From: Spirochaetia bacterium
Lineage (GTDB): Bacteria; Spirochaetota; Spirochaetia; CAKZLE01
NCBI GenBank assembly: GCA_963677595.1
Contig: OY782041.1
Coordinates: 3,968,001-4,032,000, forward strand
Direction of reading: 5' to 3'
Length of the DNA: 64,000 bases
Of this stretch, positions 696 to 39,124 are shown piece after piece; positions within the stretch are counted from its first letter, which is position 1, and each line of letters opens with the position of its first letter. The translations under genes and the position numbers were made by a program. The notes under the pieces are model-generated. The model worked only from the letters and a program-made list of their open reading frames with translations, did no database searches and was not told the origin of the DNA.

Positions 696-1162
696 ATGCT
701 GTCCCCCCGCTCCGATGCGAGCTGGACTCCCTTGATGATCATGTCGTAGCCGGTACACCTGCAGAGGTTCCCGGACAACCCGACCTTGATCTCATCGACC
801 GTCGGATGGGGGTTCGCTCTCAGCAGGGCAACGGAAGCCATGACCATCCCAGGGGTGCAGAAACCGCACTGCACCGCCCCGGAGTCGGCGAAGGCTTCGA
901 TGATGCATCGCCCCTCGTCAGTCTCACGGAGTCCCTCGAGGGTCTCGATGGTCGAACCGTGCACCGTGCCGATCGGCACCATGCAGGAGTTCACCAGGCA
1001 GCCGTCCTTCAGGACGGAACAAGCCCCGCATTCACCCTCGCCGCAGCCTTCCTTGACACCCGTGAGCCCGAGGTCCTCCCTGAGCACGTCTAGCAGCCGC
1101 ATCTCGCCGGGACCGGTCACGGTTGTCTCCTTGTTGTTGAGTATGAACGTCACGTCATGCAC
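689..1162 (-). CDS. xdhC: Xanthine dehydrogenase-family [2Fe-2S] subunit
   Basis: GVKEGCGEGECGAC, QCGFCTPG and GNLCRCTGY motifs. Confidence 0.93.
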   Translation of the reverse strand: MHDVTFILNNKETTVTGPGEMRLLDVLREDLGLTGVKEGCGEGECGACSVLKDGCLVNSCMVPIGTVHGSTIETLEGLRETDEGRCIIEAFADSGAVQCGFCTPGMVMASVALLRANPHPTVDEIKVGLSGNLCRCTGYDMIIKGVQLASERGDSIW

Positions 1163-3296: not shown

Positions 3297-3327
3297 ATAT
3301 TTCAGTTCCTCCGCATCTTCTAATATA

Positions 3328-4548: not shown

Positions 4549-4608
4549 CCTATATCTCTCCTGATTCTGTTATATTGTTATAGTCACGTATGACGTTACG
4601 TCCATCTG

Positions 4609-5943: not shown

Positions 5944-5944
5944 A

Positions 5945-9112: not shown

Positions 9113-9154
9113 AATCACTCCTCCATAACCGTAATTCAATAAACCCTATCCTTC

Positions 9155-9182
9155 ATTGTACTGTCAAAAGAACTTCTGTCAA
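9155..9182 (-). promoter_or_regulatory. Sigma70-like promoter of the ygfK-ssnA-ygeY-xdh operon
   Basis: Minus strand TTGACA-16 bp-TACAAT. Confidence 0.6.
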
Positions 9183-9371
9183 TAAAAAGTTGCAACAATC
9201 TGCAACAATTGATATATTTGCATAAAATAAATATTGACTTTACAACCCAATTGGTGTAAAAGGTAAGAATTGGTGGAATATTCTACGTATTCGTAAATAT
9301 TCTATTTCATATTTGGTTTTTTACGAAATCGTAATATAATAAAAACTGATATCTGAATTGGAGGAGAAGTT

Positions 9372-10835
9372 ATGATAGATCTGACCATGCATGAGGAGAT
9401 CCGAGAGAAGAACATCCAGCGCTGCCGAGAGAAAGGGATCATCTATCCCACGTTCGCACAGATGAAGGACCCGTCACTGATCCCGACCCAGCTTGAGGAG
9501 AAGCTCCACAGCACCGGGCTCTGGGATGTCGATCCCGTGAACCTCTTCAGGATCACCTGGAAGAACGAGCCCGCCGACCAGGGCGGACGGCACCACGGGG
9601 TAAACTACCTCGAGGTCCCCAGGGAGATCACCGGCACGAAGGCACGGATCTTCGCACTCGTCGGGAAATGGTTCCCCACCGGTGCCCACAAGGTTGGAGC
9701 GACCTACGGCTGTCTTGCACCCGCACTCACGACCGGTAACTTCGACTCGACCACACAGAAGGCTGTATGGCCCTCGACCGGTAACTACTGCCGGGGCGGC
9801 GCCTACAACTCAGCCCTGCTCGGCTGCGACTCGATCGCCATCCTTCCCGAGGAGATGAGCAAGGAACGGTTCGAGTGGCTCAAGTCTGTAGCCGGCGAGG
9901 TCATCGCTACCCCGGGCTGCGAGAGCAACGTCAAGGAAATCTTCGACAAGTGCCATGAGCTCGATGCTGAGCGAGGGGACAACATCGTCATCTTTAACCA
10001 GTTCGACCAGTTCGGCAACTACCTGTGGCACTACTCCGTGACCGGTTCAGCGATCGAGGAGTTCCTCACCGCTGAAGGGATCACTGCCGGCCAGCTCAAG
10101 GGCTATGTCTCAGCTACCGGTTCAGGCGGTACGCTCGCTGCAGGGGATTACCTCAAGCAGAAGTACCCGGAAGTCAAGATCGGCGCAGCCGAGGCACTCC
10201 AGTGCCCGACCCTGCTGCGCAACGGGTTCGGCGGCCACCGGATCGAGGGCATCGGCGACAAGCATGTCCCCTGGATCCATAACGTGAAGAATACCGACAT
10301 GGTCCTCGCCATCGATGATAACGACTGCATGGACCTCCTGAGGCTCTTCAACGAGGAGAACGGCCAGAAGGAACTTGCAGAGGACGGCGTGACCAAAGAG
10401 TTCATAGAGAAACTGGACCTCTTCGGCATCTCGGGCATCGGCAACCTGCTCGGCGCCATCAAGATGGCCAAGTTCTACGAGATGGAAGAGGATGACGTGA
10501 TCGTTACCGTCCTGACCGACTCTGCCGAGATGTACGTCTCCAGGCTCGCAGAGATGAACGAGGCACGGGGCGAGTTCACGGTCAAGGATGCTGCAGGCAC
10601 CTACCAGGCGTCCCTGATGCACCAGACGATGGAGAATGCCAAGGAACTCGGGTACTATGACCGACTCGCGATCCACAACCTCAAGTACTACACCTGGATC
10701 GAGCAGCAGGGCAAGGAGATCGATGAGATCAACGCACAGTGGTATGACCGGGAGTACTGGACACGGATCCAGGCCCTCGAACCGCAGATCGATGCACTCA
10801 TCAATGAGTTCAACGAGAAGGTAGGACTTCTCTAG
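9372..10835 (+). CDS. PLP-dependent fold-type II enzyme (cysteine synthase/Trp synthase beta-like, uncharacterised subfamily)
   Basis: FPTGAHKVGA (Schiff-base Lys), PSTGNY, ATGSGGT and HRIEGIG motifs. GAGGAG SD. Confidence 0.85.
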   Translation: MIDLTMHEEIREKNIQRCREKGIIYPTFAQMKDPSLIPTQLEEKLHSTGLWDVDPVNLFRITWKNEPADQGGRHHGVNYLEVPREITGTKARIFALVGKWFPTGAHKVGATYGCLAPALTTGNFDSTTQKAVWPSTGNYCRGGAYNSALLGCDSIAILPEEMSKERFEWLKSVAGEVIATPGCESNVKEIFDKCHELDAERGDNIVIFNQFDQFGNYLWHYSVTGSAIEEFLTAEGITAGQLKGYVSATGSGGTLAAGDYLKQKYPEVKIGAAEALQCPTLLRNGFGGHRIEGIGDKHVPWIHNVKNTDMVLAIDDNDCMDLLRLFNEENGQKELAEDGVTKEFIEKLDLFGISGIGNLLGAIKMAKFYEMEEDDVIVTVLTDSAEMYVSRLAEMNEARGEFTVKDAAGTYQASLMHQTMENAKELGYYDRLAIHNLKYYTWIEQQGKEIDEINAQWYDREYWTRIQALEPQIDALINEFNEKVGLL

Positions 10836-10856
10836 GGAAGCACGCAAACCATGAAG

Positions 10857-10884
10857 GACCGGGCAGAGACTGCCCGGTCTCTTT
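10857..10884 (+). terminator. Stem-loop, probable intrinsic terminator or attenuator
   Basis: gaccgggcag-aga-ctgcccggtc followed by tcttt. Confidence 0.6.
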
Positions 10885-10905
10885 CGTTGTAAGGAGACGA
10901 GACAA

Positions 10906-12126
10906 ATGAGATTCAGCTACAGGTGTTCGGACTGCGGCACACGGTATGAGACAGAGGAGCTCATGTATCGCTGCCCCGCATGTGATACAGACCCGGGAGA
11001 CAGGTTCCAGAGCGGGAACCTGATCGTCGAACTCGAGCTAAAGGGACTGCGGGAACTCGCGAAGAAGGACCATGTGACCCCCTTCGACTTCTTCCCCTAC
11101 ACCGTTCCCTCCCCGGAAGCCTATCCCGTCGGGAACACCCCCCTTTCAGTATCACCACGGCTCTCCGCGGCTTACGGCTTGAAGAACCTTCGGTTCAAGC
11201 TCGAGGGGCAGAACCCTTCAGGGTCCTTCAAAGACCGTGCCTCCCAGCTCATAGCAGCCCAGGCACAGGCCCTCGGGGAGCAGAAGGTCGTACTCGCCTC
11301 AACCGGGAATGCAGGATCCGCCATGGCCTGCGCCGGGGCAGCCTACGGGTTGGAGATCGTGCTCTTCGTACCGGCATCAGCCCCGGTGAACAAGCTGATG
11401 CAGTCGGTCCTCTACGGCGCCCATGTGATCCCGGTGAACGGGACCTATGATGATGCCTTCGCCCTCTCTATCGCCTATTCGCAGGAGTTCGGCGGGATCA
11501 ACCGGAACACGGCCTACAACCCCATGACCATCGAGGGCAAGAAGAGTGTGAGTATCGAGCTGTTCGAGCAGCTCGGCAGGCGACTGCCGGATGCGGTCTA
11601 TGTCCCGGTCGGGGACGGGGTCATCCTCTCCGGCGTCTACAAGGGGTTCAAGGACCTCATGGATGCCGGCATCACCGATCACGTCCCTGCCATCATCTGC
11701 GTGCAGTCCTCGGGAAGTGACGCGATCAGCCGAGCCTGGAGTACCGGTGAGTTCAAGTCCCTCAAAGAGGCAACCACGACCGCCGATTCCATCTCGGTCG
11801 CCTCCCCTGCGAACGGCAGGATGGCTGTGGATTATATCAAGGCCTCGGGAGGCTGGGCGACGGTCATCAGCGATGAGGACATCTCCGAAGCACAGCTCGA
11901 GTTGGCGCATGATGCGGGCATGTTCGCAGAACCTGCAGCATCCGCTGCCTGGGCCGGTGTCCGTGCTGACAGGGAGAAGCTCCTCGAGACCTTCGGCCCC
12001 GAGGCTGAGGTCACGGTCCTGCTCACCGGTACGGGGTTCAAGGACATGAAGTCCTTCGACGGCAAGGTGTCCATCCCCCCTTCGATCGAACCGACAGTCG
12101 AGGCCATGCGGGTCTATATGAAGTAG
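10906..12126 (+). CDS. Threonine synthase-family PLP enzyme
   Basis: N-terminal CxxC..CxxC, NPSGSFKDR, ASTGNAG, VPVGDG, EPAASAA and LTGTGFKD motifs. Confidence 0.85.
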   Translation: MRFSYRCSDCGTRYETEELMYRCPACDTDPGDRFQSGNLIVELELKGLRELAKKDHVTPFDFFPYTVPSPEAYPVGNTPLSVSPRLSAAYGLKNLRFKLEGQNPSGSFKDRASQLIAAQAQALGEQKVVLASTGNAGSAMACAGAAYGLEIVLFVPASAPVNKLMQSVLYGAHVIPVNGTYDDAFALSIAYSQEFGGINRNTAYNPMTIEGKKSVSIELFEQLGRRLPDAVYVPVGDGVILSGVYKGFKDLMDAGITDHVPAIICVQSSGSDAISRAWSTGEFKSLKEATTTADSISVASPANGRMAVDYIKASGGWATVISDEDISEAQLELAHDAGMFAEPAASAAWAGVRADREKLLETFGPEAEVTVLLTGTGFKDMKSFDGKVSIPPSIEPTVEAMRVYMK

Positions 12127-15676: not shown

Positions 15677-17140
15677 TCAGTATAGTCCCGTCCCCAACCC
15701 GACGAGGTAGACGACGCCGGAGAGGATGATCGTCCCGAACAGCGTCATGAGCAGTCCCGACTTCGCAAAGTCCGCGATCGAGAAGTAGCCTGCCGAATAG
15801 GGAATGACGTTCGTCGGTGAGGAGGTCACCAGGATGAACGCAAGCGATGCCACCAATGAGGCCGGAAGGGCCACGGAGAGCACCGGCAGTCCCAAGGCGA
15901 CGGCCAGCTCGATCATGATCGGGATGATGATCGTCGCCGTGACCGTGTTGCTCGAGAAGACGATCTTCAACAGCGAGATCATCAGCACGATCACGAACAC
16001 CATCACGTACGACGGCAGGCTCCCGATGCCTGAGAGCAGTACCACCGACAGCCATCTTGCCGCCCCCGACGTGTAGAGCATCATACCAAGCGAGATCCCC
16101 GTCACGATCAGGATGATCCCGCTCCACGATACCTGCGGCTCGATCTGCTTCCACGGAATACGCGAGACCTTCGGCAGGAAGAACAGACAGGCGGTGAACA
16201 TCACCGGCATCGAGATCGGGATGCTGATCCCCAGCCACTTCCCGAGCACCGGCGAACCGAGCCACAGCACCACCGTGATCAGGAAGAGCACCATCGTGAT
16301 GATCTCTTCCCGTCCCATCGGCGGCAGGTCCTTCGACTCTTGCTTGAGCTCTTCCTTCGTCTTCGACAGATGACTCATCTCCGGCTTGAAGAAGATCATC
16401 AGCGTCACCCATGAGGCCGGGATCATCAACAGTGCCGCCGGCACCCCGTAGAGCATCCACTGCCCGAAGGTCACGTCATAGCCTGCCATATCCTTCAGGA
16501 ACCCGATCGCCAGCGCGTTCGGTCCCGCACCTGAAGGCGTCGCGATCCCCCCGATGATCGACCCTTGCGCACACGCGATCAGCAGGGCACGCCCGAAGTT
16601 GCTCTCCAGCGGCTTGATCCCTTCCTCTTCCAGGATCGCCACCGCCAACGGCATCAGCATCGCCGCTACCGCCATGTTCGTGATCCACATCGACAGCAGG
16701 CCACCTGCCAGCAGGAACCCGAAGAGGATACTCTTCGTCGAGTTCCCCGTCTTCGAGAGGATCAGCACACCGATGCGCTTGCCCAGCCCAGACGTCGTGA
16801 TGAACGCTGAGAGGATCAGGACCCCGATGAAGAACGTCACCGTGTTCGACCCGAACCCCTCTTTCACGATCACCTTATAGGTATCTACCCGGAACAGCGT
16901 CAGCAGCACGATCGACAGCATCCCCGTCACATGGAACGGGATCGCCTCGGTCATCCACAGCACCAGCGCGAAGACCAGTACCCCCATCGCTGCCTGTCCG
17001 GTCACCGTCAGCTCCGCACCCCCCACGATCCGTACCGAATCGGCGATCGGCATACTCTTCACCACCACCATCAGTACTGCCGCCAGTACGAAGTACAGCA
17101 TCTTCTTCGCATCTATCTTCTGTATCTCATTCAGGCTCAT
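15677..17140 (-). CDS. DASS/SLC13-family anion transporter
   Basis: WMTEAIP, SMWITN, IATPSGAGPN, SSNTVT and SSPTN motifs; multi-pass membrane protein. Confidence 0.88.
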   Translation of the reverse strand: MSLNEIQKIDAKKMLYFVLAAVLMVVVKSMPIADSVRIVGGAELTVTGQAAMGVLVFALVLWMTEAIPFHVTGMLSIVLLTLFRVDTYKVIVKEGFGSNTVTFFIGVLILSAFITTSGLGKRIGVLILSKTGNSTKSILFGFLLAGGLLSMWITNMAVAAMLMPLAVAILEEEGIKPLESNFGRALLIACAQGSIIGGIATPSGAGPNALAIGFLKDMAGYDVTFGQWMLYGVPAALLMIPASWVTLMIFFKPEMSHLSKTKEELKQESKDLPPMGREEIITMVLFLITVVLWLGSPVLGKWLGISIPISMPVMFTACLFFLPKVSRIPWKQIEPQVSWSGIILIVTGISLGMMLYTSGAARWLSVVLLSGIGSLPSYVMVFVIVLMISLLKIVFSSNTVTATIIIPIMIELAVALGLPVLSVALPASLVASLAFILVTSSPTNVIPYSAGYFSIADFAKSGLLMTLFGTIILSGVVYLVGLGTGLY

Positions 17141-17154
17141 CGAGCTCTCCTCTC

Positions 17155-18039
17155 TCAGTCTTCCAGCAGTTCCTTCAGCAGCTCACCCACGAACCGCGGC
17201 CGTTCAGCCACCAGCCCGCCGGCTTCCGTCAAGGCCGCGATCTTCCCCTCGACCGTGCCTTTACCACCGGTCACGATCGCTCCCGCATGGCCCATCCGCT
17301 TCCCTTTCGGGGCCGTCCGGCCACCTAAGAATGCCACCACCGGCTTCGTGAAGCTTCCGTCTGCCATCGCTTCGGCCACTTCCTCTTCCATCGTCCCGCC
17401 AAGCTCCCCGATGATCACCACCGCGTCGGTCGCCTCATCGGCCTCATAGAGCGGCAGCATCTCGGCAAACCGCGTCCCCGGCACCGGGTCGCCCCCGATC
17501 CCGATGAGCGAGCTCACCCCAAAGCCTGCGGCGACTACCATCGCCGTCACCTCATTGGTCAGTGACCCGCTTCGCGTCATGACCCCGATCCGTCCCGGCT
17601 TGTACACCCGGTCGATCCAGTAGGGGAACATCCCCATCATCGCTGACCCCGGGCTGATCACCCCGGAGGTGTTCCCCCCGACGACCATCGCCCCGCAGCT
17701 CTTCGCTGCAGCACGGATCTCTACCATCTCATGCAGCGGGATCCCGTCTGCGATCGTCACGATCTTTTTGATCCCGCCATCAAGTGCCTCGAAGACCGCA
17801 TCTTTGGTAAACCGCGGCGGCACGAACAGCATCGCCGCATCCACCTCATGCTCTGCCACTGCCCGTCTCACCGAGTGGTAGACCGGCTTCCCGCAGACTT
17901 CTTGGCCTTCCTTCCCAGGCGTCACCCCGCAGGTCACCTGTGTCCCAAGATCTATCATATGGCCTGTCCAGAAGCTCCCCTCTTTCCCGGTGATCCCCTG
18001 CACGAGTACCTTCGTATCCCTGTCTATGAATATGCTCAT
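17155..18039 (-). CDS. ADP-forming acyl-CoA ligase alpha subunit (SucD-like; possibly sulfoacetate-CoA ligase)
   Basis: VLVQGITGKEG, RSGSLT, IGIGGD and GKRMGHAGA (phospho-His) motifs. Start at MSIFID. Confidence 0.88.
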   Translation of the reverse strand: MSIFIDRDTKVLVQGITGKEGSFWTGHMIDLGTQVTCGVTPGKEGQEVCGKPVYHSVRRAVAEHEVDAAMLFVPPRFTKDAVFEALDGGIKKIVTIADGIPLHEMVEIRAAAKSCGAMVVGGNTSGVISPGSAMMGMFPYWIDRVYKPGRIGVMTRSGSLTNEVTAMVVAAGFGVSSLIGIGGDPVPGTRFAEMLPLYEADEATDAVVIIGELGGTMEEEVAEAMADGSFTKPVVAFLGGRTAPKGKRMGHAGAIVTGGKGTVEGKIAALTEAGGLVAERPRFVGELLKELLED

Positions 18040-18044
18040 CTCTC

Positions 18045-19163
18045 TCAAGCTCCCTTCGCGATCGCCACGGCTTTCCGTACGGCCTCTTCCGTATCGAACA
18101 GCGGCTCGAGTCCTGCAGCTTGCAGGATCCTCACGGCCTCTTCCTCGTTCGTCCCACGGATGCACGTCACGATCGGCCGGTCCGGCTTCAGCTTCTGCAT
18201 CGCTTCCACGATCCCCTCTGCCATCACGTCCGCCCGCGCGATCGTCCCGAAGGTCACCATCAGGATCACCTTCGACTCATTCTGCAAACACAGTTCCATC
18301 GCCCGCATCGCCTTCCGGTAGTTCGGCCCCCCGAACTCCAGGTAGTTCGCGACCTTCCCACCTTCGTAGTTGATCAGGTCGTATACCGTCGTCGTCAAGC
18401 CTGCCCCCGCACACATCAGCGAGATGTCCCCGTCGAACTGCAGGTACGGGATTCCCTCACGCGCTGCCTCGAACTCCATGTCGCTCTCGTAGTACTCACG
18501 GGTCCGCTCATACCCGGGCTGCCGATCCATCGAGTTCTCATCGATACTGAGCTTCCCGTCTCCTGCAACCACCTGCCCCTCGGTTGTGATGAACAGCGGG
18601 TTGATCTCTGCCAATTCCGCATCACAGGTGGAGAAGACCTCGTAGAGCTGCATCACGATCTTCTTCACCTGCTTCGCTGTCGTCCCCTCGCAGCCGAGCC
18701 GGTAGGCAAGGTCCCCTGCCTGGTAGGGCTGCAGCCCCGCGGTGATCTCCACCGGCTCCTGGATGATCTTCTCAGGATCGGTGACCGCCAAGCTCTCGAT
18801 CTCCACCCCGCCTTCTGCGCTCGCGATGATCAGTGCAGACGGGGCCACCGGGTCGATCGTCACCGACAGGTAGATCTCACGGTCAATAGACACCGCTTCC
18901 TCTACCAGCAGCTTCTTCACCCCATGCTCGGAGGCAAACAGCCGCTCGGCTTCCGATTTCGCTTCCTCTGCCGTCCTCACGAACGGGATCAGCCCCGCCT
19001 TCCCGCGCCCGCCCCGCAGTACCTGCGATTTCAGCACGCAGGGAAGCCCGACCTCCTCGATCGCTGCGAGCACCTCTTCTACGCTCTCGGCCAATACGCC
19101 TTTCGGCGTCTTGATCCCGTGGGTCCGGAAGACCTCTTTCGCCTGGTATTCGAATAGTTTCAT
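18045..19163 (-). CDS. ADP-forming acyl-CoA ligase beta subunit (SucC-like; possibly sulfoacetate-CoA ligase)
   Basis: MKLFEYQAK, KSQVLRGGRGKAG, EGGVEIE, EINPL and GAGL motifs. Confidence 0.88.
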   Translation of the reverse strand: MKLFEYQAKEVFRTHGIKTPKGVLAESVEEVLAAIEEVGLPCVLKSQVLRGGRGKAGLIPFVRTAEEAKSEAERLFASEHGVKKLLVEEAVSIDREIYLSVTIDPVAPSALIIASAEGGVEIESLAVTDPEKIIQEPVEITAGLQPYQAGDLAYRLGCEGTTAKQVKKIVMQLYEVFSTCDAELAEINPLFITTEGQVVAGDGKLSIDENSMDRQPGYERTREYYESDMEFEAAREGIPYLQFDGDISLMCAGAGLTTTVYDLINYEGGKVANYLEFGGPNYRKAMRAMELCLQNESKVILMVTFGTIARADVMAEGIVEAMQKLKPDRPIVTCIRGTNEEEAVRILQAAGLEPLFDTEEAVRKAVAIAKGA

Positions 19164-19168
19164 TGCTC

Positions 19169-20581
19169 TTACTCCCCGTACTTCTCTATGAATGCACCGA
19201 ACATCTCCTCATCACTCGGCTTCGACGGTGTGATCGGCTTCGAGAGCCACGTCACGTTGAGGAAGTGCTTGTAGTTGATGTTCTCCGTCGTGATGTTCCC
19301 GCCCCACGTACCGCAGCCAAGGGTGACCGTAGACGGCATCCCGTTGAAGAAGTTCCCCCCGTTCGCCGGGGCCTGCGGCTGGTTCACGATGATCCTCGAG
19401 GACTTCATATGGGTCCCGAGGTAGTCGATGTATGCCTCGTTCTGCGTGAAGATCCCGCAGGAGTGGCCTGTCCCGTTGTTGTCCGTGATCTCTTTGAGCA
19501 GCGTATACCCCTCTTCGAAGTCTGTGTACTTCCATACCGTGAGCACCGGAGAGAGCTTCTCCTTCGCATACCGGTCTTCGGTGATCGGCCTCTTCCCCTC
19601 TACCACGAGCATCCGCTTCTCTGCAGGGATCGAAAGCCCTGCGTCAGCGGCGATCACCTGCGCCGACTTCGCCACGATCCCCGGGTTCAGCGCCCGGTAC
19701 CCGTTCTTGTTCTCTATCCACATCCACTGCTCTAACGTCTGCTTCTCTTCAGCCGAACACAGGTATCCGCCTTCAGCTTCCAGGAGTCGCATGAACTCGT
19801 CATAGATCGACTCATGCACGATCACGGAGTTCTCTGACGAGCAGCTCGTCGCGTTGTCGAAGCACTTGCTCAAAGCTACCTTCGCTGCCGCGTCGGCTAC
19901 ATCGGCATCCTCGGCAATGATCTGCACCGAGTTCCCCGGCCCTACCCCGTAGGCTGGCGTGCCTGAGGAGTAGGCGGCCTTCACCATCGCACCGCCTCCG
20001 GTCGCCAAGACCAGGTCCACCTTCGCCATGAGTTCCCCCGTTGCCGGGATCGATGGTTCTGCAATGATCTGGATGAGGTCCTCAGGCGCCCCCACCTTCT
20101 TCAAGCCGGCACGCATGTACTCCACGGCCAGTGAGGAAGCGGCCTTCGACCGCGGGTGCGGTGCGAAGATCACCGCGTTCCGCCCTTTGAGCACGCTCAC
20201 CGCGTTGCTTCCCGGCGTCGCTGTCGGGTTCGTCACCGGCGTCAATGCCCCGATGACCCCAACGGGCTTGGCATACTTGAAGATCTGCTTCGCCTCATCG
20301 GTCTCGATGAGCCCCACAGACTTCGCGCCTGGGTCCATCACGTCCTTCAGTACCCCGAGGATCTTCCCCTTATGCTTCTTCACCTTGTCCTCGTAGTTCC
20401 CCATCCCCGTCTCCTCGACGGCTAATGCGGCTAACTTCTCGATGTTCTCGTCCTTATACACTTCCCACCCGATCGCTAAACACACCTCGTCGATCTGCTC
20501 CTGGGTGTAGTCGGCTACCTGGGCCTGCGCGGCTCGAGCCTTCGTGATCAATATATCGATTGCTGTATCTGCAGTTTCCAT
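19169..20581 (-). CDS. CoA-acylating aldehyde dehydrogenase, SauS/SqwD (sulfoacetaldehyde dehydrogenase)-like
   Basis: PVTNP, GVGPGN, SKCFDNATSCSSENS, EKLSPVL, GHS and GCGTWGGN motifs. The DNATSCSSENS active-site segment matches SauS as I recall it. Confidence 0.85.
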   Translation of the reverse strand: METADTAIDILITKARAAQAQVADYTQEQIDEVCLAIGWEVYKDENIEKLAALAVEETGMGNYEDKVKKHKGKILGVLKDVMDPGAKSVGLIETDEAKQIFKYAKPVGVIGALTPVTNPTATPGSNAVSVLKGRNAVIFAPHPRSKAASSLAVEYMRAGLKKVGAPEDLIQIIAEPSIPATGELMAKVDLVLATGGGAMVKAAYSSGTPAYGVGPGNSVQIIAEDADVADAAAKVALSKCFDNATSCSSENSVIVHESIYDEFMRLLEAEGGYLCSAEEKQTLEQWMWIENKNGYRALNPGIVAKSAQVIAADAGLSIPAEKRMLVVEGKRPITEDRYAKEKLSPVLTVWKYTDFEEGYTLLKEITDNNGTGHSCGIFTQNEAYIDYLGTHMKSSRIIVNQPQAPANGGNFFNGMPSTVTLGCGTWGGNITTENINYKHFLNVTWLSKPITPSKPSDEEMFGAFIEKYGE

Positions 20582-20613
20582 AGAACCTCCGTCATGATAA
20601 AAAGTAATGCTCT

Positions 20614-20625
20614 TTGTCTATACAA
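20614..20625. promoter_or_regulatory. Probable GntR/HutC operator 1
   Basis: TTGTCTATACAA near-palindrome abutting a minus-strand TTGACA(20652-20647)...TGTAAT promoter. Confidence 0.7.
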
Positions 20626-20686
20626 TTACACATTGATTTACGAATTTGTCAAGAGTTAATAGTGGAAAAACTTCTATAGATAACAC

Positions 20687-21475
20687 TTAGGAGGCTGAGA
20701 CTGTCCGCTTCTTCTTCCTTTTACGCTTGCTGCTGAAGAGGTACTTGCCCGAAGTCGCCTTGAACCGGTAGCGGTCCCCCCGATAGAAGGAATAGAGGAC
20801 TTCAACAGGGATCTCGTCAGCATCGTAGATGGTGCTCTCGAGCATCATGCAGGGTTCCGGTTCTGTTATCTCGAAGATAGCAAGCTCATCAGGTCCGGGA
20901 AGGACTGCCTGGAAGATCTGTGTGGAGTGGTGAAGCTCGACCCCGAACTTCTCCACGAGGAGGTGGTAGAAGGAATCTGTGATCTTCATATCGAGAAGCT
21001 TCTTGAACTCATCATAGGAGATATAGCTCTTCTCGATGAGGACCGGCTCATTCTCTACCCGTTTCACGCTGATGGTGAGGATAGCCTGCTGCTCTGGCCC
21101 GAGTTCCAGTAGGTTCGCCGTCCGCTCGTCGGGGGTCACGACCTCCATGGACAAGGTCTCATGGATCGGGATGATCCCATGGAGTTCCATGTCGTCATCG
21201 AAGGCGGAGATGTTCTCGAGGCCGTAGATGTATCCCCGCGGCTTGGTGGAGACCAGGATGGTCCCCTCTGCCCGCTTCCGTACGATCATCTTCTCGAGTA
21301 CGAGTTCTTCTAATGCCTGCCGGACGGTCATACGGTTGACGCCGAACTTCTCGGCGAGCTCCTCCTCGGTCGGCAGTCGGTCGCCCACCTGGATCCTTCC
21401 CCGGTTGATCATACCGAAGATCCATTGCCTGATCTGGAGATATTTAGGGACTTTACTTGTAGGATCCAATGCCAT
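20687..21475 (-). CDS. GntR-family (HutC/UTRA) transcriptional regulator
   Basis: PKYLQI, GDRLPTEEELAEKFGVNRMTVRQAL and a C-terminal UTRA domain ending YRGDRY. Confidence 0.92.
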   Translation of the reverse strand: MALDPTSKVPKYLQIRQWIFGMINRGRIQVGDRLPTEEELAEKFGVNRMTVRQALEELVLEKMIVRKRAEGTILVSTKPRGYIYGLENISAFDDDMELHGIIPIHETLSMEVVTPDERTANLLELGPEQQAILTISVKRVENEPVLIEKSYISYDEFKKLLDMKITDSFYHLLVEKFGVELHHSTQIFQAVLPGPDELAIFEITEPEPCMMLESTIYDADEIPVEVLYSFYRGDRYRFKATSGKYLFSSKRKRKKKRTVSAS

Positions 21476-21556
21476 GTGTACACCTCTGCGTTGGATAAAG
21501 TCTATCACCATGGGTCTGGAAGGTCAATATAATGTATAGTTTGTATATCTGTATGT

Positions 21557-21568
21557 TTGTATAGACAA
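21557..21568. promoter_or_regulatory. Probable GntR/HutC operator 2
   Basis: TTGTATAGACAA, the exact reverse complement of the site at 20614, between gntR and the aminotransferase. Confidence 0.7.
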
Positions 21569-21634
21569 ACACCATTTTCAATGATATCCTATTACAAAAA
21601 TACTCAAAAATACTGCCTTTCACAGGAGAAGTAG

Positions 21635-23002
21635 ATGGAACGATACAAATCTGTACCAAACGAGAAGATCAATCTCGATACCTATGAACTCGAGAATATT
21701 TACCAGTCATGGTGCTACCAGCCGGTAAACCCGCCCAACCGGGTCGTGTCGGCAAAAGGATTGCGGTTCACCACTGAGGACGGCCGTGAACGGCTCGACT
21801 TCAGTTCCTGCTTCGTCAGCCACAACATCGGGCACCAGGACCAGCGGGTGGTCGACGCGATCTGCCGCCAGGCGAACAAGCTCACCTCTTTCGCCCCGAG
21901 TTTCTCGACTGAGCCGAGAGCCCTGCTCGGGAAGATCCTGGAAGATATAACCCCCGGGGACCTGGGGACTTCCTTCATCTCCCTCGGCGGTACCGAGGCG
22001 AACGAAGCTGCGATCAAGATCGCCCAGCAGCATACCGGCAAGCGGAAGATCATCGGGCGCTACAGGAGCTACCATGGAGGGACCGGTGCAGCCATGTCGG
22101 TCTCCGTCGGGGACCCGAGGAGCTGGGCAGTCGTCTCAGGCAAGACGGAGGTGGTCGCCGTACCGCAGCCCTACTGCTACCGGTGCATGTTCGGCCAGGA
22201 ATACCTTTCCTGCAAGATGCAGTGCCTGAAGTACACCGAAGAGGTCATCCAGCTCGAGGGCGGGGATGATATGATCGCAGGGATGATCTGTGAGCCGGTT
22301 ACCGGTGCGAACGGCATCATCGTCCCGCCGCCTGAGTACTTCCCCATGCTTCGGGAGATCTGCGACAAATACGGGATCATGCTCATCGCCGATGAGGTCA
22401 TGAGTGGGTTCGGCAGGACCGGTAAGTGGTTCGCCGTTGACCACTGGGATGTCGTCCCAGACATCCTCAGCGTTGCGAAGGGCCTGACCTCAGGCTATTT
22501 CCCGCTTGGTGCCACGATCACGAAGAAGGATGTCGGCAAGTCCTTCCAGGAGAAGATGTTCAGCCACGGTGCGACCTATGCCGGCCATGCACTCGGCTGC
22601 GCGACCGCCATCGAGGTGGTGAGCATCTATGAGAAGGACAACCTGATCGAAAACTCAGCTGTCCTCGGCGAGTACCTCAAGCAGAAGGCCCTTGAACTGA
22701 AAGAGAAACACCCGGTCATCGGGGATGTCCGAGGTCTCGGCCTCTTCGTCGGTCTCGAGCTGGTCAAGGACCGGGAGACCAAGGAACCGATCATCCCGAT
22801 CAAGGCAAAGATCCAGAAGGGACTCAACCCGAAACTGGAACTGGCAAAGAGACTCGGGGAACTCGGCATGATGGTCATGGCCGCAAACCCAAGCAACGTC
22901 GTTGGTCTTGCACCGGCACTCATAGCAACCAAAGATGACATCGATGAGGGCATGGCTATCCTTGACGAGGCATTGGAGGTTCTAGGAAAATACACAGTAT
23001 AG
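21635..23002 (+). CDS. Class III (omega-amino acid) aminotransferase, taurine/beta-alanine:2-oxoacid type
   Basis: GGTEANE, YRSYHG, DEVMSGFGRTG, AKGLTSGY and HGATYAGH motifs. Confidence 0.88.
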   Translation: MERYKSVPNEKINLDTYELENIYQSWCYQPVNPPNRVVSAKGLRFTTEDGRERLDFSSCFVSHNIGHQDQRVVDAICRQANKLTSFAPSFSTEPRALLGKILEDITPGDLGTSFISLGGTEANEAAIKIAQQHTGKRKIIGRYRSYHGGTGAAMSVSVGDPRSWAVVSGKTEVVAVPQPYCYRCMFGQEYLSCKMQCLKYTEEVIQLEGGDDMIAGMICEPVTGANGIIVPPPEYFPMLREICDKYGIMLIADEVMSGFGRTGKWFAVDHWDVVPDILSVAKGLTSGYFPLGATITKKDVGKSFQEKMFSHGATYAGHALGCATAIEVVSIYEKDNLIENSAVLGEYLKQKALELKEKHPVIGDVRGLGLFVGLELVKDRETKEPIIPIKAKIQKGLNPKLELAKRLGELGMMVMAANPSNVVGLAPALIATKDDIDEGMAILDEALEVLGKYTV

Positions 23003-23138: not shown

Positions 23139-23861
23139 ATGAACACCGAAACCAATTTGGTGGCGAACTCAGGGCTGATGTTCATCCTGTGTCTCATCCC
23201 GATCGTCATCATCGCGATCCAGGCAGTCGTCTTCCTCATCCGGGCCTACCGTGAAGCAGGCAATATGGGGATCACAGCCGCTACCAGGAAGAAAGTCATC
23301 ATCAACAGCGCGGTCTTCTCGATCGTGCCGACCCTGCCGATCATCCTGATCATGGCCGTACTCATGCCGGCACTCGGCAAGTACCTGCCCTGGCTGAGGC
23401 TCTCGGTCATCGGGTCAGCATTCTATGAGAACATGGCTGCCGACATGGCTGTCAAGGCATTCGGCCTGACCGGTATCGCCGACACCGGTATGACGCCGTC
23501 GATCTTCATCAGTGTCGCCTGGGTCATGACCCTTGGAGTCCTGATGTACCCGCTGGCTAATATCTTCTTCCTCAAATCCCTGGACAAGGGCTTCAAGAAG
23601 ATGAAGAGCAAGGGCGGCTTCCTCGCGAAGATCACACCGGCTATGTTCCTCGGCCTCATGGCTGCCTACGGCGGTTCCTATGTCGCGAACTACCAGAACT
23701 ATCTCTCCATCGTGGCGATCCTGACCAGTGGGGTCCTGATCTTCCTGTTGGGTGCGATCGCAAAGAAGAGCGGGCAGAAGTGGCTCAATGACTTCTCCTT
23801 CCCTCTCGCCCTCATCGGCGGTATGGCAGCAGCCATCATCGTATCGTCCATAGCAGCATAA
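23139..23861 (+). CDS. DUF5058-family membrane protein
   Basis: PWLRLSVIGSxxYE motif and multiple TM helices. Confidence 0.8.
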   Translation: MNTETNLVANSGLMFILCLIPIVIIAIQAVVFLIRAYREAGNMGITAATRKKVIINSAVFSIVPTLPIILIMAVLMPALGKYLPWLRLSVIGSAFYENMAADMAVKAFGLTGIADTGMTPSIFISVAWVMTLGVLMYPLANIFFLKSLDKGFKKMKSKGGFLAKITPAMFLGLMAAYGGSYVANYQNYLSIVAILTSGVLIFLLGAIAKKSGQKWLNDFSFPLALIGGMAAAIIVSSIAA

Positions 23862-23873
23862 GGAGGAACGAAC

Positions 23874-24587
23874 ATGAGTAAGAAAGAACACACGAAAATA
23901 GAGCTCTCACCATACCAGAAGCAGCTCCATACCTTCGGCAGGACTACCAATGTCATCGCAGTCATCGCCCTCGTGGCAGTACCGCTGGTACTCACCATGG
24001 TATCAGGGGTACCTATCGACATCGGGCTCACGCTCCGCGGCCTCGTTGGTATCGGGTCCCTCATGATGGTCATGGTCATCGTAGAGTTCATGAGCTATGC
24101 ACCGATCCTCGGTGCAGGTGCGACCTACCTGACCTTCATCACCGGTAATACCGGTAACCTGAAGCTCCCGGCAGCGAAGAGCTCGATCCGGCTCGCAGAA
24201 GTCGAGGACGGGTCAGCAGAGGCTGAGATCATCTCGACCATGGCTGTCGCCGTCTCCTCGCTCGTCACCATCGTCATCCTCTTCATCGGTCTCTTCGGGC
24301 TGAGTTTCCTCATCCCTGTCCTGCAGAACCCGACCCTCAAACCAGGTTTCGACAACCTGATGCCGGCCCTCATCGGGGCCATGGGTATCCCGGTACTGAT
24401 CATGAGCCCGAAAGAGGCATCCCTCCCGGTCATCGTGGCGATCATCCTGACGCTCATCATCGGGTACGCGATGTTCATGCAGATGGTCTCCATGGCCCTG
24501 CCGGTCTTCATGCTGCTCTCGATCGGCTGGTCATATGTGCTCCATAGAAGGGATGAGAAGAAGAACGCTGCAGCTGATGCAGAATAG
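23874..24587 (+). CDS. Membrane protein, partner of DUF5058 (probable two-subunit permease)
   Basis: YAPILGxGATYLTFITGNxxNLKLP motif and multiple TM helices. AGGAGG SD. Confidence 0.75.
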   Translation: MSKKEHTKIELSPYQKQLHTFGRTTNVIAVIALVAVPLVLTMVSGVPIDIGLTLRGLVGIGSLMMVMVIVEFMSYAPILGAGATYLTFITGNTGNLKLPAAKSSIRLAEVEDGSAEAEIISTMAVAVSSLVTIVILFIGLFGLSFLIPVLQNPTLKPGFDNLMPALIGAMGIPVLIMSPKEASLPVIVAIILTLIIGYAMFMQMVSMALPVFMLLSIGWSYVLHRRDEKKNAAADAE

Positions 24588-24597: not shown

Positions 24598-26232
24598 ATG
24601 AAAAAGATCTATACGAATGGAACAATCATCACCGTCGATGACGACATGCCCCAGGCTGAGGCAGTCGTCGTCAGTGACGGGAAGATCGTCTTCGTCGGCA
24701 GCAGTGAAGGCGCTGCAGCCTACAAGGATGATACGACAGAACTCATCGACCTGGAGGGCAAGACGATCCTCCCGGGCTTCATCGACGGCCACAGCCACTA
24801 CTTCATGGCTGCCAACACGGCGAACATGGCTTCAGTCGCGGCACCCCCGATCGGGAACGTCCACTGTATACCAGATATCATCGCCATACTCAAAGATGAC
24901 ATCGCCAAGAAGGACTATGGTCCAGAAGACATCGTCATGGGCTGGGGCTACGATGAGTCCCTGCTTGATGAAGGCAGGGTCCCGACCAACAAGGAGCTCG
25001 ATGAGATCTCCGAGGAGCTCTCGATCTATATCGCGCATGCCTCAGGCCATAAGGGCGTTGCCAACAGCGCGTTCCTGAAGCGCTTTGGGATCGACGAGAA
25101 TTCCGTGGACCCAGAGGGCGGCCACATCGGGCGGTACCCGGGGACGATGATCCCCAACGGGACGCTCGAGGAACAGGCCATGATGCCGATCATGATGAAG
25201 ATGTTCGGCAAGCCTAATGAGGCGACCCTCGTTGCCAATCTCAAGGCTGTCGGCGAGCTCTATGCCAGCAACGGTATCACGACCGCACAGGATGGCGGCT
25301 GGCAGGAAGCGGTCATCGGGCTGGCACGGATGGCTGACAAGCAGGGACTGGTCAAGATCGACGTCGTCGGCTACCCCTTCGTGGACAGCCCGGAAGCCTT
25401 CGCCCTCATCGACAAGAACGAGGTCGGTCCCTATGACGGCCACATCAAGGTCGGTGGGGCGAAGCTGATCCTCGACGGGTCCCCACAGGCGAAGACTGCC
25501 TGGCTCTCCAAGCCGTACCATGTGACACCTCCAGGTGAGGACGCCTCCTACCGGGGCTACCCCTTCCATAACCATGATGAGCCGGTCATCGCTATCATCG
25601 AGGAGTGCCTCAAGCGGAATATCCAGCTGCTGACCCATACCAACGGCGACCAGGCATCCGAACAGCTGATCACCTGCTATGAGCAGGCACAGAAGAACAC
25701 CGGGATCACCGGTGACTTCCGTCCGGTCATGATCCATGCACAGACAGTGCGTGACGACCAGCTCGACCGGATGGTCCCGCTGCACATGATCCCGTCGTTC
25801 TTCCAGTGCCATACCTTCTTCTGGGGCGACTGGCACATGGATTCAGTGTTAGGACCTGTACGCGGGGCACACATCAGCCCGGTACGGGCTGCGATAGACC
25901 GGGGCATCACCTACACGCTCCACCAGGACACACCGGTCGTGCCGCCCCAGATGATATTCACACTCTGGACAGCGGTAAACCGTAAGACACGATCCGGAAG
26001 ATCGATCGGGGCTGATCAACGGGTCACTATCATGGAGGCGATCAAGGGTATCACGATCAACGGCGCCTACCAGTATTTCGAAGAGGACTCCAAGGGGAGT
26101 ATCACCACAGGGAAACGGGCTGACATGGTCATCCTCGACAAGAACCCACTCGAAGTCGAGCCTGATGCGATCAAGGATATCCAGATCCTCGAGACCATCA
26201 AGGATGGCCAGACCATCTACACGAAGGCTTAG
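24598..26232 (+). CDS. YtcJ-like (amidohydrolase 3) metallo-amidohydrolase
   Basis: PGFIDGHSH, DGSPQ, HTNGD, HAQ, HQDTPV and GKRADMVIL motifs. Start at MKKIYTNG. Confidence 0.9.
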   Translation: MKKIYTNGTIITVDDDMPQAEAVVVSDGKIVFVGSSEGAAAYKDDTTELIDLEGKTILPGFIDGHSHYFMAANTANMASVAAPPIGNVHCIPDIIAILKDDIAKKDYGPEDIVMGWGYDESLLDEGRVPTNKELDEISEELSIYIAHASGHKGVANSAFLKRFGIDENSVDPEGGHIGRYPGTMIPNGTLEEQAMMPIMMKMFGKPNEATLVANLKAVGELYASNGITTAQDGGWQEAVIGLARMADKQGLVKIDVVGYPFVDSPEAFALIDKNEVGPYDGHIKVGGAKLILDGSPQAKTAWLSKPYHVTPPGEDASYRGYPFHNHDEPVIAIIEECLKRNIQLLTHTNGDQASEQLITCYEQAQKNTGITGDFRPVMIHAQTVRDDQLDRMVPLHMIPSFFQCHTFFWGDWHMDSVLGPVRGAHISPVRAAIDRGITYTLHQDTPVVPPQMIFTLWTAVNRKTRSGRSIGADQRVTIMEAIKGITINGAYQYFEEDSKGSITTGKRADMVILDKNPLEVEPDAIKDIQILETIKDGQTIYTKA

Positions 26233-26405: not shown

Positions 26406-28037
26406 ATGAAGGACACGATCTATATCAACGGGGAAGTGGTCACCGTCAACGATAAGCAGCCGGAGGCAGAGGCGGTAGTCGTCAGGAAGGGGAAGATCGC
26501 CTTCGTCGGCTCGACCAAGGAAGCATTACAATACCGGAAAGGTAGTACCAGGGTGATCGACCTTGCGGGGAAGACCCTGCTCCCGGGATTCATCGACCCG
26601 CACAGCCATTTCCTCATGGCGACGCTCACCTCCGATTTCGTCGTCCTCTCCTCCCCGCCCATCGATACCATCGAGACGATCGATGATATCATCGGTCGGC
26701 TCAAAGACCGGATCACTGAGCGAAAGCTCAAGCCCGGGACGACCCTGGTAGGCTGGGGCTTCGATGACTCGCTGCTCAAGGAGGGTCGTATCCTCACCAA
26801 CCGTGACCTCGACCTGGTCTCGACCGAGCACCCGGTGCTCACCATGCACCAGTCCGGCCATATCGGGGTGGTGAACAGCAGCGCCCTCGAGCTCTTCGGG
26901 ATAACCGCCGACACGCCTGACCCCGAAGGCGGCCATATCGGGCATTGGGAGGACGGCACACCGAACGGACTGCTCGAGGAGGCTGCACTCATGAACCACC
27001 TCATGTCGATCTTCCCGAAACCGTCACTGGGGACGGTCATCAGCTCGTTCAAGAAAGGCACGAAGCTCTATGCCCAGTACGGCATCACCACCGCACAGGA
27101 CGGTGGGACTACGGACCAGATGCTCATGCTCGTGAAGCTCGCACGGATCCTGCGCCTCTTCAAGATAGATGTGGTAGGCTATTACGGTATATCAGAGGAG
27201 GGGTTCAGCAAGCTTGACTGGGTCAAGGAGCAGAACCGGTATAAGGGTGGCTTCAGGCTCGGGGGCGTGAAGTTCCTCCTCGACGGCTCCCCCCAGGCAA
27301 AGACAGCCTGGCTCTCGAAACCCTATTTCAAGCCACCAGAGGGTCAGCCTGCCGATTACTGCGGCTATCCCATGCATGAGGACACCGATTTCGTCGACCG
27401 GGTCTATGAGGAGGCCCTGAAGCGCGACATCCAGATCCTGACCCATACCAATGGGGACCAGGCTTCCGAGCAGCTGATCACCAGCTTCGAGAAGGCGAAG
27501 AAGAAGACCGGCAGCACCGCTGATACCCGCCCGGTCATGATCCATGCCCAGACGGTCCGGGACGACCAGCTCGACCGGATGGCACCGCTGAACATGATCC
27601 CCTCCTTCTTCCACGACCATACCTTCTACTGGGGTGACTGGCATATACACTCGGTCCTCGGTAAGGAGCGTGCCTACCGGATCAGCCCTATCCAGTCCGC
27701 GATCAAGCGGGGCATCACCTACACCCTTCACCAGGACACGCCGGTCGTCCCGCCGAACATGCCGTTCACCCTCTGGACTGCCGTGAACCGCAAGACCCGC
27801 AGCGGGGAAGTCATAGGAGCTGACCAGCGTGCTTCGAGGATCGAGGCACTCCGGGGCATCACGCTCAACGGTGCCTACCAGTACTTCGAGGAGGACTCGA
27901 AGGGGAGCATCGAGGTCGGCAAGCGGGCGGACCTCGTGATCATGGACGGCAACCCGATGACCGTCGATGCTGATGCGATCAAGGACCTGAAAGTCCTCGA
28001 GACGATCAAGGACGGCAAGACCATCTACCGGAGATAA
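26406..28037 (+). CDS. YtcJ-like amidohydrolase (paralog of the upstream gene)
   Basis: Same motifs; long identical peptides shared with 24598..26232. Confidence 0.9.
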   Translation: MKDTIYINGEVVTVNDKQPEAEAVVVRKGKIAFVGSTKEALQYRKGSTRVIDLAGKTLLPGFIDPHSHFLMATLTSDFVVLSSPPIDTIETIDDIIGRLKDRITERKLKPGTTLVGWGFDDSLLKEGRILTNRDLDLVSTEHPVLTMHQSGHIGVVNSSALELFGITADTPDPEGGHIGHWEDGTPNGLLEEAALMNHLMSIFPKPSLGTVISSFKKGTKLYAQYGITTAQDGGTTDQMLMLVKLARILRLFKIDVVGYYGISEEGFSKLDWVKEQNRYKGGFRLGGVKFLLDGSPQAKTAWLSKPYFKPPEGQPADYCGYPMHEDTDFVDRVYEEALKRDIQILTHTNGDQASEQLITSFEKAKKKTGSTADTRPVMIHAQTVRDDQLDRMAPLNMIPSFFHDHTFYWGDWHIHSVLGKERAYRISPIQSAIKRGITYTLHQDTPVVPPNMPFTLWTAVNRKTRSGEVIGADQRASRIEALRGITLNGAYQYFEEDSKGSIEVGKRADLVIMDGNPMTVDADAIKDLKVLETIKDGKTIYRR

Positions 28038-39111: not shown

Positions 39112-39124
39112 GTACTATGTGACT

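Follow-up and report, generated by a model that had tools for sequence, protein, structure and literature searches.

Gene content and organization of the cluster

The stretch of DNA analysed here (hereafter the window) comprises 64,000 nucleotides of a Spirochaetia bacterium (GCA_963677595.1, contig OY782041.1, positions 3,968,001 to 4,032,000) and encodes a ten-gene cluster that is predicted to convert taurine into sulfoacetate with formation of ATP. Its minus-strand arm encodes a DASS-family anion transporter, predicted to be a sulfoacetate exporter (15677..17140; TIGR00785, 235.8 bits for a cut-off of 198.6), the SucD-like alpha subunit (17155..18039; 294 aa, with an intact GHAGA phospho-His motif) and the SucC-like beta subunit (18045..19163) of an ADP-forming acid-CoA ligase of the SqwKL type, a CoA-acylating aldehyde dehydrogenase of the SqwD clade (19169..20581; catalytic Cys247) and a GntR/HutC-type (UTRA) regulator (20687..21475; PF00392 and PF07702), the ATG of the alpha subunit gene being located 6 nt past the stop codon of the beta subunit gene. 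The plus-strand arm encodes a class III (omega) aminotransferase of the PRK06062 family, which forms its own clade and is a predicted taurine transaminase (21635..23002), a DUF5058 membrane protein with about five hydrophobic segments, candidate subunit of an importer (23139..23861; PF16481, 215 bits), a partner membrane protein with about six hydrophobic segments and no Pfam family (23874..24587), and two Amidohydro_3 metallo-hydrolases that are candidate N-acyl-taurine hydrolases, namely A (24598..26232; PF07969, 317 bits; S149/Q297/N349/H405) and B (26406..28037; PF07969, 333 bits; S150/Q297/N349/H405). A previous reading of this DNA from the sequence alone (hereafter the sequence-only reading) had described the aminotransferase, regulator, dehydrogenase, ligase and DASS genes as one divergon ending at 23002. 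These genes are all present and open, but the regulator shares the strand of the dehydrogenase arm, so that only the transaminase arm is divergent, and this arm runs on to 28037 with the two membrane protein genes and the two Amidohydro_3 genes.

The identical ten-gene order is found in L001 (Spirochaeta sp. UBA9216; L numbers designate the loci compared), with proteins 63-83% identical to those of the window and an M20 peptidase in addition. The regulator is 81% identical to its homologue in L001 and 62% to that in L251. A DUF5058 gene also comes after the transaminase gene in L001, L089 and L251. No paper on DUF5058 was found in the literature searched, and a search of the ESM Atlas with the DUF5058 pair returned no usable function; the nearest family-bearing cluster to the partner membrane protein was a 463-aa DUF5058 protein at 0.84, which serves as a lead only. 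Elsewhere in the genome, the gene for an amidase-signature enzyme is followed by another DUF5058 pair (L083:15645-18515; genome C1:1775644-1778514), so that such pairs are associated with amide hydrolases from two families that are unrelated to each other.

The dehydrogenase-ligase-transporter module and its second copy

A tblastn search revealed a second genomic copy of four of the ten genes, with protein identities of 96% for the dehydrogenase and the ligase beta subunit and 99% for the ligase alpha subunit and the DASS transporter. The duplicated block (15681..20543; 4,863 bp) shares 94.8% nucleotide identity with its counterpart (genome C1:1460105-1464967), with 254 mismatches and no gaps; it starts approximately 13 codons into the dehydrogenase gene and finishes at the stop codon of the DASS gene, and 189 of the 256 coding differences between the copies are third positions. 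The second copy lies among genes coding for a YihQ-type glucosidase (752.6 bits for a cut-off of 553), a split transketolase, RpiB, a sugar ABC transporter and a ROK regulator, and with a sulfoquinovose (SQ)-isomerase-like gene that scores 216.8, below the cut-off of 700. The whole region (L081/L082; genome C1:1452761-1472050) constitutes a complete oxidative sulfo-transketolase (sulfo-TK) cluster for SQ, to which NagB-like, Gfo/Idh/MocA, Amidohydro_2 and DUF4867 genes are added; L033, L039 and L062 likewise contain the NagB-like and Gfo/Idh genes.

In oxidative sulfo-TK pathways, SqwD and SqwKL are reported to convert sulfoacetaldehyde to sulfoacetate with formation of ATP (PMC11659671, PMC11489063, PMC12890257). 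Because a near-identical copy lies inside the genome's own SQ transketolase cluster, the dehydrogenase-ligase-DASS block is very likely such a SqwD/SqwKL module for the conversion of sulfoacetaldehyde to sulfoacetate, an assignment made by context. Columns conserved at a level of at least 95% in SQ-linked orthologues are retained almost entirely by the four proteins of the window module (181/182, 112/112, 136/136 and 133/134), the first value referring to the dehydrogenase and 50 SQ-linked orthologues. Among 80 dehydrogenase-related loci, counted within the fetched stretches, many of which are short contigs, at least one SQ marker was present in 52 and both halves of the transketolase in 45; the ligase beta subunit was encoded in 71 and the transaminase in two. 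The SQ-linked relatives include Spirochaetes, Firmicutes and Acholeplasmataceae, which are the groups reported for SqwD/SqwKL in the published descriptions.

The dehydrogenase carries the motif FDNATSCSSENS at aa 241-252, in which Cys247 aligns with the DNGIICSSEQS motif of PDB 8CEI, an acylating succinate-semialdehyde dehydrogenase that is its best PDB match (352 bits). SQ-linked relatives match the window dehydrogenase with far higher scores (720-1025 bits), and Acholeplasmataceae/Izemoplasma proteins from SQ clusters are 64-70% identical to it. In a FastTree phylogeny of 63 chosen rows, all of them uncharacterised enzymes, the dehydrogenase falls within a 41-row clade (support 99), surrounded by SQ-linked rows.

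The ligase is a two-subunit ADP-forming enzyme with a phospho-His, encoded beside the acylating dehydrogenase. Its alpha subunit has TRSGSLTNE where succinyl-CoA synthetases (SCS) have SRSGTLTYE, and its beta subunit has VTFGTIARAD where SCS has NIFGGIV/TR. Both motifs, which were derived in this analysis from gene context and not from a paper, are widespread in the SQ-linked ligases: the former occurs in 66 of 67 open reading frames (ORFs) of the alpha subunit and the latter in 69 of 70 ORFs of the beta subunit and in 30/30 further loci. The signature residues have been described as Tyr and GIV in SCS and as His160 (alpha) and GIN (beta) in HpfYZ (PMC11489063); at these places the window ligase has Asn and TIA, and the HpfYZ signature was not found in it. 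Neither subunit reaches the SucC/SucD NCBIfam cut-offs (332 for 336 and 335 for 370), and no other SucCD was found in the genome by tblastn.

A duplicate created by the assembly was considered and rejected: the 254 mismatches are scattered and mostly at third positions, loose contig ends at 15681 and 20545 carry the flanks of the second copy in two public runs from two studies, and L001 has the same gene order. Since the ten-gene order recurs in L001 and the loose contig ends fit the block edges, the cluster is neither chance nor misassembly. Compared with L001, the regulator, the transaminase, the DUF5058 pair and the amidohydrolases are 75-83% identical, whereas the dehydrogenase, ligase beta subunit and DASS transporter reach just 63-73% and the ligase alpha subunit 78%. 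The congener locus L062 shows 85% identity; this congener has one, SQ-linked, copy and lacks a transaminase of the clade. The simplest reading would be that of an old cluster whose own module was replaced through recombination with the SQ copy resident in the genome, in which case both copies would do the same job.

The transaminase and its clade

The protein encoded at 21635..23002 (TRANSAMINASE) has Toa (6JIX) as its best solved relative (273 bits) and scores 436 on PRK06062, versus 218-245 on gamma-aminobutyrate (GABA)-transaminase models. Its W26 and R162 align with the Trp and Arg of Toa that we take to be active-site residues; this does not discriminate, since the pyrimidine-linked paralogue of the same genome carries both. 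A quick IQ-TREE phylogeny (57 loci given, 63 rows, all uncharacterised enzymes) groups 26 rows, 61-83% identical to the window protein, in a clade with SH-aLRT support of 100. This clade stands apart from the transaminase of the reductive pyrimidine cluster, the paralogue (L083), which lies with PreA, dihydropyrimidinase and a carbamoylase. The clade is spread over Spirochaetota and Desulfobacterota; it was not found in the five other genomes of the same order (E <= 1e-140).

The neighbourhoods of the 26 rows, in which a subset of the ORFs was annotated, are as follows: (i) Xsc over the cut-off next door in two rows (L098, L278), (ii) an IslA-like glycyl radical enzyme with its activase and an Fe-type alcohol dehydrogenase (Fe-ADH) in one row (L091), (iii) a SqwD-sister dehydrogenase in five rows (L090, L095, L096, L097, L099), with TauABC, of which TauA is over the cut-off, in L090, (iv) the SqwKL module in four rows (window, L001, L031, L251), (v) a sphingosine-1-phosphate (S1P)-lyase-like gene in six rows, and (vi) transporters or other genes only in the remaining eight. 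Thus, 12/26 rows adjoin Xsc, IslA-like and Fe-ADH genes or a SqwD-like dehydrogenase or ligase, and in four of them (L090, L091, L098, L278) the markers are independent of the SqwKL module. Automatic JGI labels of 'taurine-2-oxoglutarate transaminase' were not counted. The glycyl radical enzyme of L091 (L091:5115-7634) was also examined as a candidate HpsG (NF048011, 1557 for a cut-off of 1000) and rejected on its PDB scores, which favour isethionate lyase. With the identities of 5YMR and 6LON in this comparison assumed, its best matches are 5YMR (1381 bits) and the isethionate sulfite-lyase 7KQ3 (1296 bits); the NF048011 model may fail to separate HpsG from isethionate lyase.

Linkage of the transaminase clade with the ligase module was observed in four spirochaete genomes (window, L001, L031, L251). 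Among 401 sampled Spirochaetia genomes, eight have the clade and 60 the ligase, the ligase being present in 6/8 clade-bearing genomes versus 54/393 others (p = 2e-4, with kin not independent and on the assumption that both counts drew the same genome sample).

Amidohydrolases and regulation

Amidohydro_3 enzymes designated mBSH (metal-dependent, taurine-selective bile salt hydrolases) are described as cleaving only taurine-conjugated bile acids, the sulfonate being bound by S144, Q290, N337 and H393 in the numbering of the B. massiliensis enzyme (PMC13081988). The five metal ligands are present (H66/H68/H347/H380/D444; PF07969), and the S/Q/N/H residues of both window enzymes align to S143/Q290/N337/H393 of a clostridial homologue, whose numbering is nearly that of the B. 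massiliensis residues and through which the comparison with mBSH was made. The identity with clostridial homologues is 36-42%. Among the clostridial homologues (14 loci, one without usable ORF), the four residues are kept in 8/8 at 36-42% identity and in 0/5 at 28-32%. In L251, a different member of the family (36%) with the same four residues is encoded directly before the transaminase, hence the amidohydrolase-transaminase pairing recurs. That the two enzymes free taurine from N-acyl-taurines is the somewhat favoured interpretation of these residues and of this linkage.

A palindromic operator-like site, TTGTCTATACAA, is located upstream of the dehydrogenase arm (20614..20625), and a 12-mer that is its inverse, TTGTATAGACAA, stands before the transaminase gene (21557..21568), where it overlaps the -35 box of a predicted sigma-70 promoter of the transaminase arm (21562-21590). 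The promoter scan yielded 11 promoter-like sites, versus 5.7 +/- 2.3 in shuffles, and only the one overlapping the operator-like site was used. In degenerate form the 12-mer occurs five times in the genome, for 0.32 expected, two of these being in the cluster. It is also found upstream of the dehydrogenase of L001, while the transaminase-side site is the same in L251 and a variant in L001; it is not present upstream of the SQ-cluster copy. The shared palindrome, which presumably resembles HutC-family sites, is a candidate operator of the GntR regulator.

Predicted pathway

The following route could be encoded by the cluster. The DUF5058 pair might perhaps import a taurine conjugate or taurine, and the two metallo-amidohydrolases may release taurine from N-acyl-taurines, for example taurine-conjugated bile salts. 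The class III transaminase, to judge from the context of its clade, would use taurine as the amino donor for 2-oxoglutarate or pyruvate and so form sulfoacetaldehyde, which the SqwD-clade dehydrogenase very probably converts to sulfoacetyl-CoA with NAD(P)H, and the SqwKL-type ligase, as strongly indicated, to sulfoacetate with formation of ATP. Sulfoacetate would be exported by the DASS transporter, as sulfoacetate is the end product of the SQ cluster that encodes its near-identical copy. Acting at the palindrome common to the two arms, the GntR repressor would regulate both of them. Nitrogen would be released via glutamate or alanine, and the electrons would have to go to H2 or a co-substrate. 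Provided that glutamate dehydrogenase recycles the acceptor, the predicted net reaction is: taurine + ADP + Pi + 2 NAD(P)+ -> sulfoacetate + NH4+ + ATP + 2 NAD(P)H.

Further genome content bears on this route. In searches of the genome, which is 95.4% complete, no Xsc was found over the cut-off (the best match, 339 for 676, is an acetolactate synthase), four glycyl radical enzymes share just 34-35% identity with the IslA-like query, and neither a TauF/SarD orthologue (best 278 for 700), nor the TTT importer of the Bilophila wadsworthia route, nor dsrA was found; likewise, neither Xsc nor a close IslA-like gene was found in the genomes of L001, L031 and L251. Sulfoacetaldehyde is therefore left with no evident exit save oxidation. 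The genome encodes two ELFV-family dehydrogenases and has five matches to the [FeFe]-hydrogenase family, the latter making H2 a plausible electron sink.

The core of the route, from taurine to sulfoacetate and ATP with the C-S bond uncut, is probably correct: gene content, duplication, residues, operator and linkage are observed, and every reaction is deduced from them. This core is the one proposed in the sequence-only reading, and the SQ copy, the linkage of the clade and the amidohydrolase residues all support it, as does the lack of any C-S lyase among the genes found in the genome with regard to the predicted retention of the sulfonate. The notion of a self-balancing fermentation did not hold, because two reducing equivalents per taurine are released and no carbon is gained; the route would be a nitrogen-plus-ATP side branch that supplements sugar or amino-acid fermentation and does not stand alone. 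A more extended proposal, namely a complete and co-regulated route from taurine conjugates to sulfoacetate and ATP in non-sulfidogenic spirochaetes, with a new transaminase clade, a DUF5058 importer and an ATP module interchangeable by recombination, is put forward tentatively.

If true, this would be the first case in which taurine is catabolised with conservation of energy while its C-S bond stays uncut. Described non-desulfonating uses of taurine, by reduction to isethionate or by non-acylating oxidation to sulfoacetate, give nitrogen only; the present route would add one ATP per taurine, and fermenting anaerobes that cannot respire sulfite could gain energy from taurine, which is an osmolyte abundant in animals and algae, as well as from taurine conjugates. 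The route would also be a new source of sulfoacetate for Bilophila-type sulfide producers and would name a producer of this compound in anoxic and host-associated communities; for sponges, the source of sulfoacetate is presented as open (PMC12625764). Finally, roles are suggested for the uncharacterised transaminase clade, for DUF5058 and for environmental mBSH-like enzymes.

Comparison with known systems

Each enzyme type is known and the wiring, in which a transaminase feeds SqwD/SqwKL, is the apparently new element. The sequence-only reading knew of no description of such a combination, and none was found in the literature searched, a search outside which Chu et al. 2023 falls. The same predicted chemistry from sulfoacetaldehyde to sulfoacetate and ATP is reported for SqwD and SqwKL (and SqwE) in the oxidative sulfo-TK pathway of Acholeplasma sp. 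(PMC11659671, PMC11489063, PMC12890257). The window enzymes belong to the same clade by context and tree, and the genome also has the full SQ version, but the systems differ in that (i) the aldehyde would come from a transaminase here and comes from a transketolase there, (ii) control is by a GntR/UTRA regulator here and by a ROK regulator there, (iii) the carrier is a DASS protein here and of the MatC/CitMHS type in Acholeplasmataceae loci, and (iv) amidohydrolases and a DUF5058 pair are attached here.

SafD is presumably a non-acylating dehydrogenase, and the window dehydrogenase scores 45 bits on its model. The SafD route of Rhodopseudomonas palustris and Neptuniibacter caesariensis likewise takes in taurine, keeps the nitrogen and releases sulfoacetate with the C-S bond intact, according to the published descriptions (PMC10413351, PMC12625764); no ATP is conserved there, whereas the thioester would be conserved here. 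The SauS-SauCD-SauI-SauXYZ-TauF-IseGH system of B. wadsworthia has in common with the window an acylating dehydrogenase, an ADP-forming ligase and a carrier of the sodium:sulfate-symporter family, but is described as running reductively, spending ATP and ending in C-S cleavage and sulfite respiration (PMC10413351); in this organism Tpa holds the position that the clade transaminase holds in L091. In the TauABC-Toa-IsfD/TauF isethionate route, which also operates in fermenters, a transaminase likewise acts first and a sulfonate by-product is exported, but the reported end is reductive, with NAD(P)H consumed and no ATP formed (PMC6616044), and the window transaminase is separate from Toa. HpfX-HpfYZ of Enterococcus gilvus similarly combines an acylating dehydrogenase with an ADP-forming ligase to give ATP and a sulfo-acid; its substrate is a C3 compound from the dehydration of 2,3-dihydroxypropane-1-sulfonate and its H/GIN signature is absent from the window ligase (PMC11489063). 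The amidohydrolases share with mBSH the Amidohydro_3 family, the metal ligands and the S/Q/N/H set, and the mBSH preprint describes a family that includes Spirochaetota and has links with taurine genes; the links given there are to Tpa-SarD, IslA or Xsc (PMC13081988), while here the link is to a predicted sulfoacetate and ATP module.

Alternative explanations

Several observations weigh against the taurine route. The dehydrogenase scores 532 bits on the SauS equivalog NF047625, under the cut-off of 600, and on this model the SqwD clade (515-540) is outscored by pyrimidine-linked relatives (568-587), so that a likeness to SauS, to which the sequence-only reading had pointed, says nothing of the substrate. 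The sister clade of the dehydrogenase adjoins PydD-type transaminases (L300, L301, L210), which shows that the combination of a transaminase and an acylating dehydrogenase occurs in a beta-alanine setting too. The transaminase itself is not the orthologue of Toa, because the pyrimidine-cluster paralogue reaches 382 bits against 6JIX for 273 bits of the window protein; six of the 26 clade rows have the S1P-lyase-like neighbour and no known sulfonate gene; and the clade transaminase of L090 is adjacent to a methylmalonate-semialdehyde dehydrogenase (MMSDH)-like gene (447.6 for a cut-off of 448.5), that of L094 to a similar fragment, an observation in favour of beta-alanine. The S/Q/N/H set is present in 118/120 of the nearest amidohydrolase homologues, from many phyla, and is therefore a broad subfamily mark and not necessarily one of bile-salt specificity. 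Furthermore, L251 has the ligase, DASS, transaminase and amidohydrolase genes but lacks a SqwD-clade dehydrogenase, the best match in its 97%-complete genome being a sister-clade dehydrogenase (57%) encoded in a locus of the nucleobase type.

The sequence-only reading had named GABA and beta-alanine among its alternatives, of which the former has become unlikely and the latter is the main rival. Conversion of beta-alanine, from N-acyl-beta-alanine, via malonate semialdehyde and malonyl-CoA to malonate and ATP with export by the DASS transporter, or a cluster serving both substrates, is considered unlikely. It would fit the Toa/PydD family membership of the transaminase and the pyrimidine clusters in which a sister dehydrogenase is paired with a transaminase of the PydD type; moreover, L090 has its MMSDH-like neighbour, a third SauS-like gene of the genome lies with IolD-like and carboxyltransferase genes, and SauCD of B. 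wadsworthia is reported to have 7% activity on malonate (PMC10413351). Nevertheless, the module shares 96-99% identity with the SQ copy and retains the conserved columns, the pyrimidine cluster of the genome already has a separate transaminase and Fe-ADH, members of the transaminase clade are linked with Xsc, IslA-like and TauA genes, S/Q/N-bearing mBSHs are described as discriminating against beta-alanocholate (PMC13081988), and the loss of the malonyl-CoA carbon as malonate would be wasteful. Another aminosulfonate (homotaurine, cysteinolate or a substituted taurine) giving 3-sulfopropionate or a related acid is quite unlikely, although the transaminase clade is uncharacterised, CuyC/HpsN-like genes lie near its members L090, L095 and L097, and SauCD reportedly shows 20% activity on 3-sulfopropanoate (PMC10413351): the ligase is without the H/GIN signature of HpfYZ, the module is a copy of a C2 sulfo-TK module, the Xsc and IslA neighbours use C2 substrates, and homotaurine is called non-natural (PMC11489063).

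The pathway could also be read in reverse, the DASS transporter importing sulfoacetate, which would be reduced to sulfoacetaldehyde with ATP and NAD(P)H and transaminated to taurine as an osmolyte or electron sink. Every step is reversible in principle, and in B. wadsworthia SauCD/SauS are described as reductive and SauI, of the sodium:sulfate-symporter family, as a proposed importer (PMC10413351). This direction is nonetheless very unlikely, as the DASS transporter is 99% identical to the SQ copy, for which sulfoacetate is the end product, and amidohydrolases in the same cluster imply release of taurine. HutC-type repressors usually control catabolic operons, which also counts against it. A transaminase arm used for nitrogen only, with an incidental module and with an aldehyde:ferredoxin oxidoreductase or some general reductase disposing of sulfoacetaldehyde without gain of ATP, would agree with the lack of the dehydrogenase in L251, with the pairing of the clade transaminase and aldehyde:ferredoxin oxidoreductase in L186 and L185, and with the six aldehyde:ferredoxin oxidoreductase genes of the genome (26-33%); it is highly improbable given that the operator is shared by the dehydrogenase arm in the window and in L001 and that none of the four module genes is disrupted, the differences being mostly at third positions. 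The least probable alternative is the conversion of GABA (or 5-aminovalerate) via succinate semialdehyde and succinyl-CoA to succinate and ATP. DASS carriers often move dicarboxylates, the dehydrogenase has 8CEI as its best PDB match, and the ligase is SucCD-like in a genome without other SucCD; against this, SQ-linked relatives score far above 8CEI, both ligase subunits are under the SucC/SucD cut-offs, the succinate-binding Tyr and GIV motif is replaced, and GABA-transaminase models score well below PRK06062.

Additional observations

Relatives of the dehydrogenase and transaminase occur in other settings. In L301:3751-10626, L300:6974-9720 and L210, a PydD-type transaminase is paired with a SauS-like acylating dehydrogenase in place of MmsA, the pair of L301 lying with the reductive pyrimidine genes PreA and dihydropyrimidinase; this is a possible variant in which beta-alanine is converted to malonyl-CoA. 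The third SauS-like dehydrogenase (47%) of the genome (L085:6581-12667; genome C1:1839581-1845667), as that of L303:6620-9718, is encoded with IolD-like, IolG-like and MmdA-like carboxyltransferase genes, and possibly serves a route from inositol via malonate semialdehyde and malonyl-CoA to decarboxylation. In L090, L095, L099, L067, L071 and L073 (Desulfobacterales and similar metagenome contigs), the SqwD-sister dehydrogenase is linked with an Fe-S flavoprotein and a 2-oxoacid:ferredoxin oxidoreductase, without a ligase in the stretch. The S1P-lyase-like neighbours of the transaminase clade (L182, L183, L184, L185, L187 and L249, e.g. L249:272-3356) match solved S1P lyases at 392 bits and their loci often carry DUF819 with a fatty acyl-CoA ligase or an aldehyde:ferredoxin oxidoreductase. 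They may cleave capnine, a sulfonolipid base, by a retro-aldol reaction into taurine and a fatty aldehyde, the alternative being the formation of phosphoethanolamine from sphingolipids; no lyase of the S1P type for capnine was among the literature matches listed.

Elsewhere in the window, positions 1-12126 encode xanthine-dehydrogenase-type subunits, an M20 peptidase, an amidohydrolase, YgfK (1425 for a cut-off of 835) and two pyridoxal phosphate-dependent lyase-like proteins, presumably a cluster of the purine-degradation type, which is apparently unconnected with the taurine cluster. An MtmB-family methyltransferase (57618-59087, minus strand; 318 bits) is encoded by a single 489-aa frame without internal stop and is therefore a non-pyrrolysine homologue. 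Finally, three adjoining AAA_14 + DUF4143 genes (37954-42133) lie in a stretch of lower GC content (47-50%, versus about 57%).

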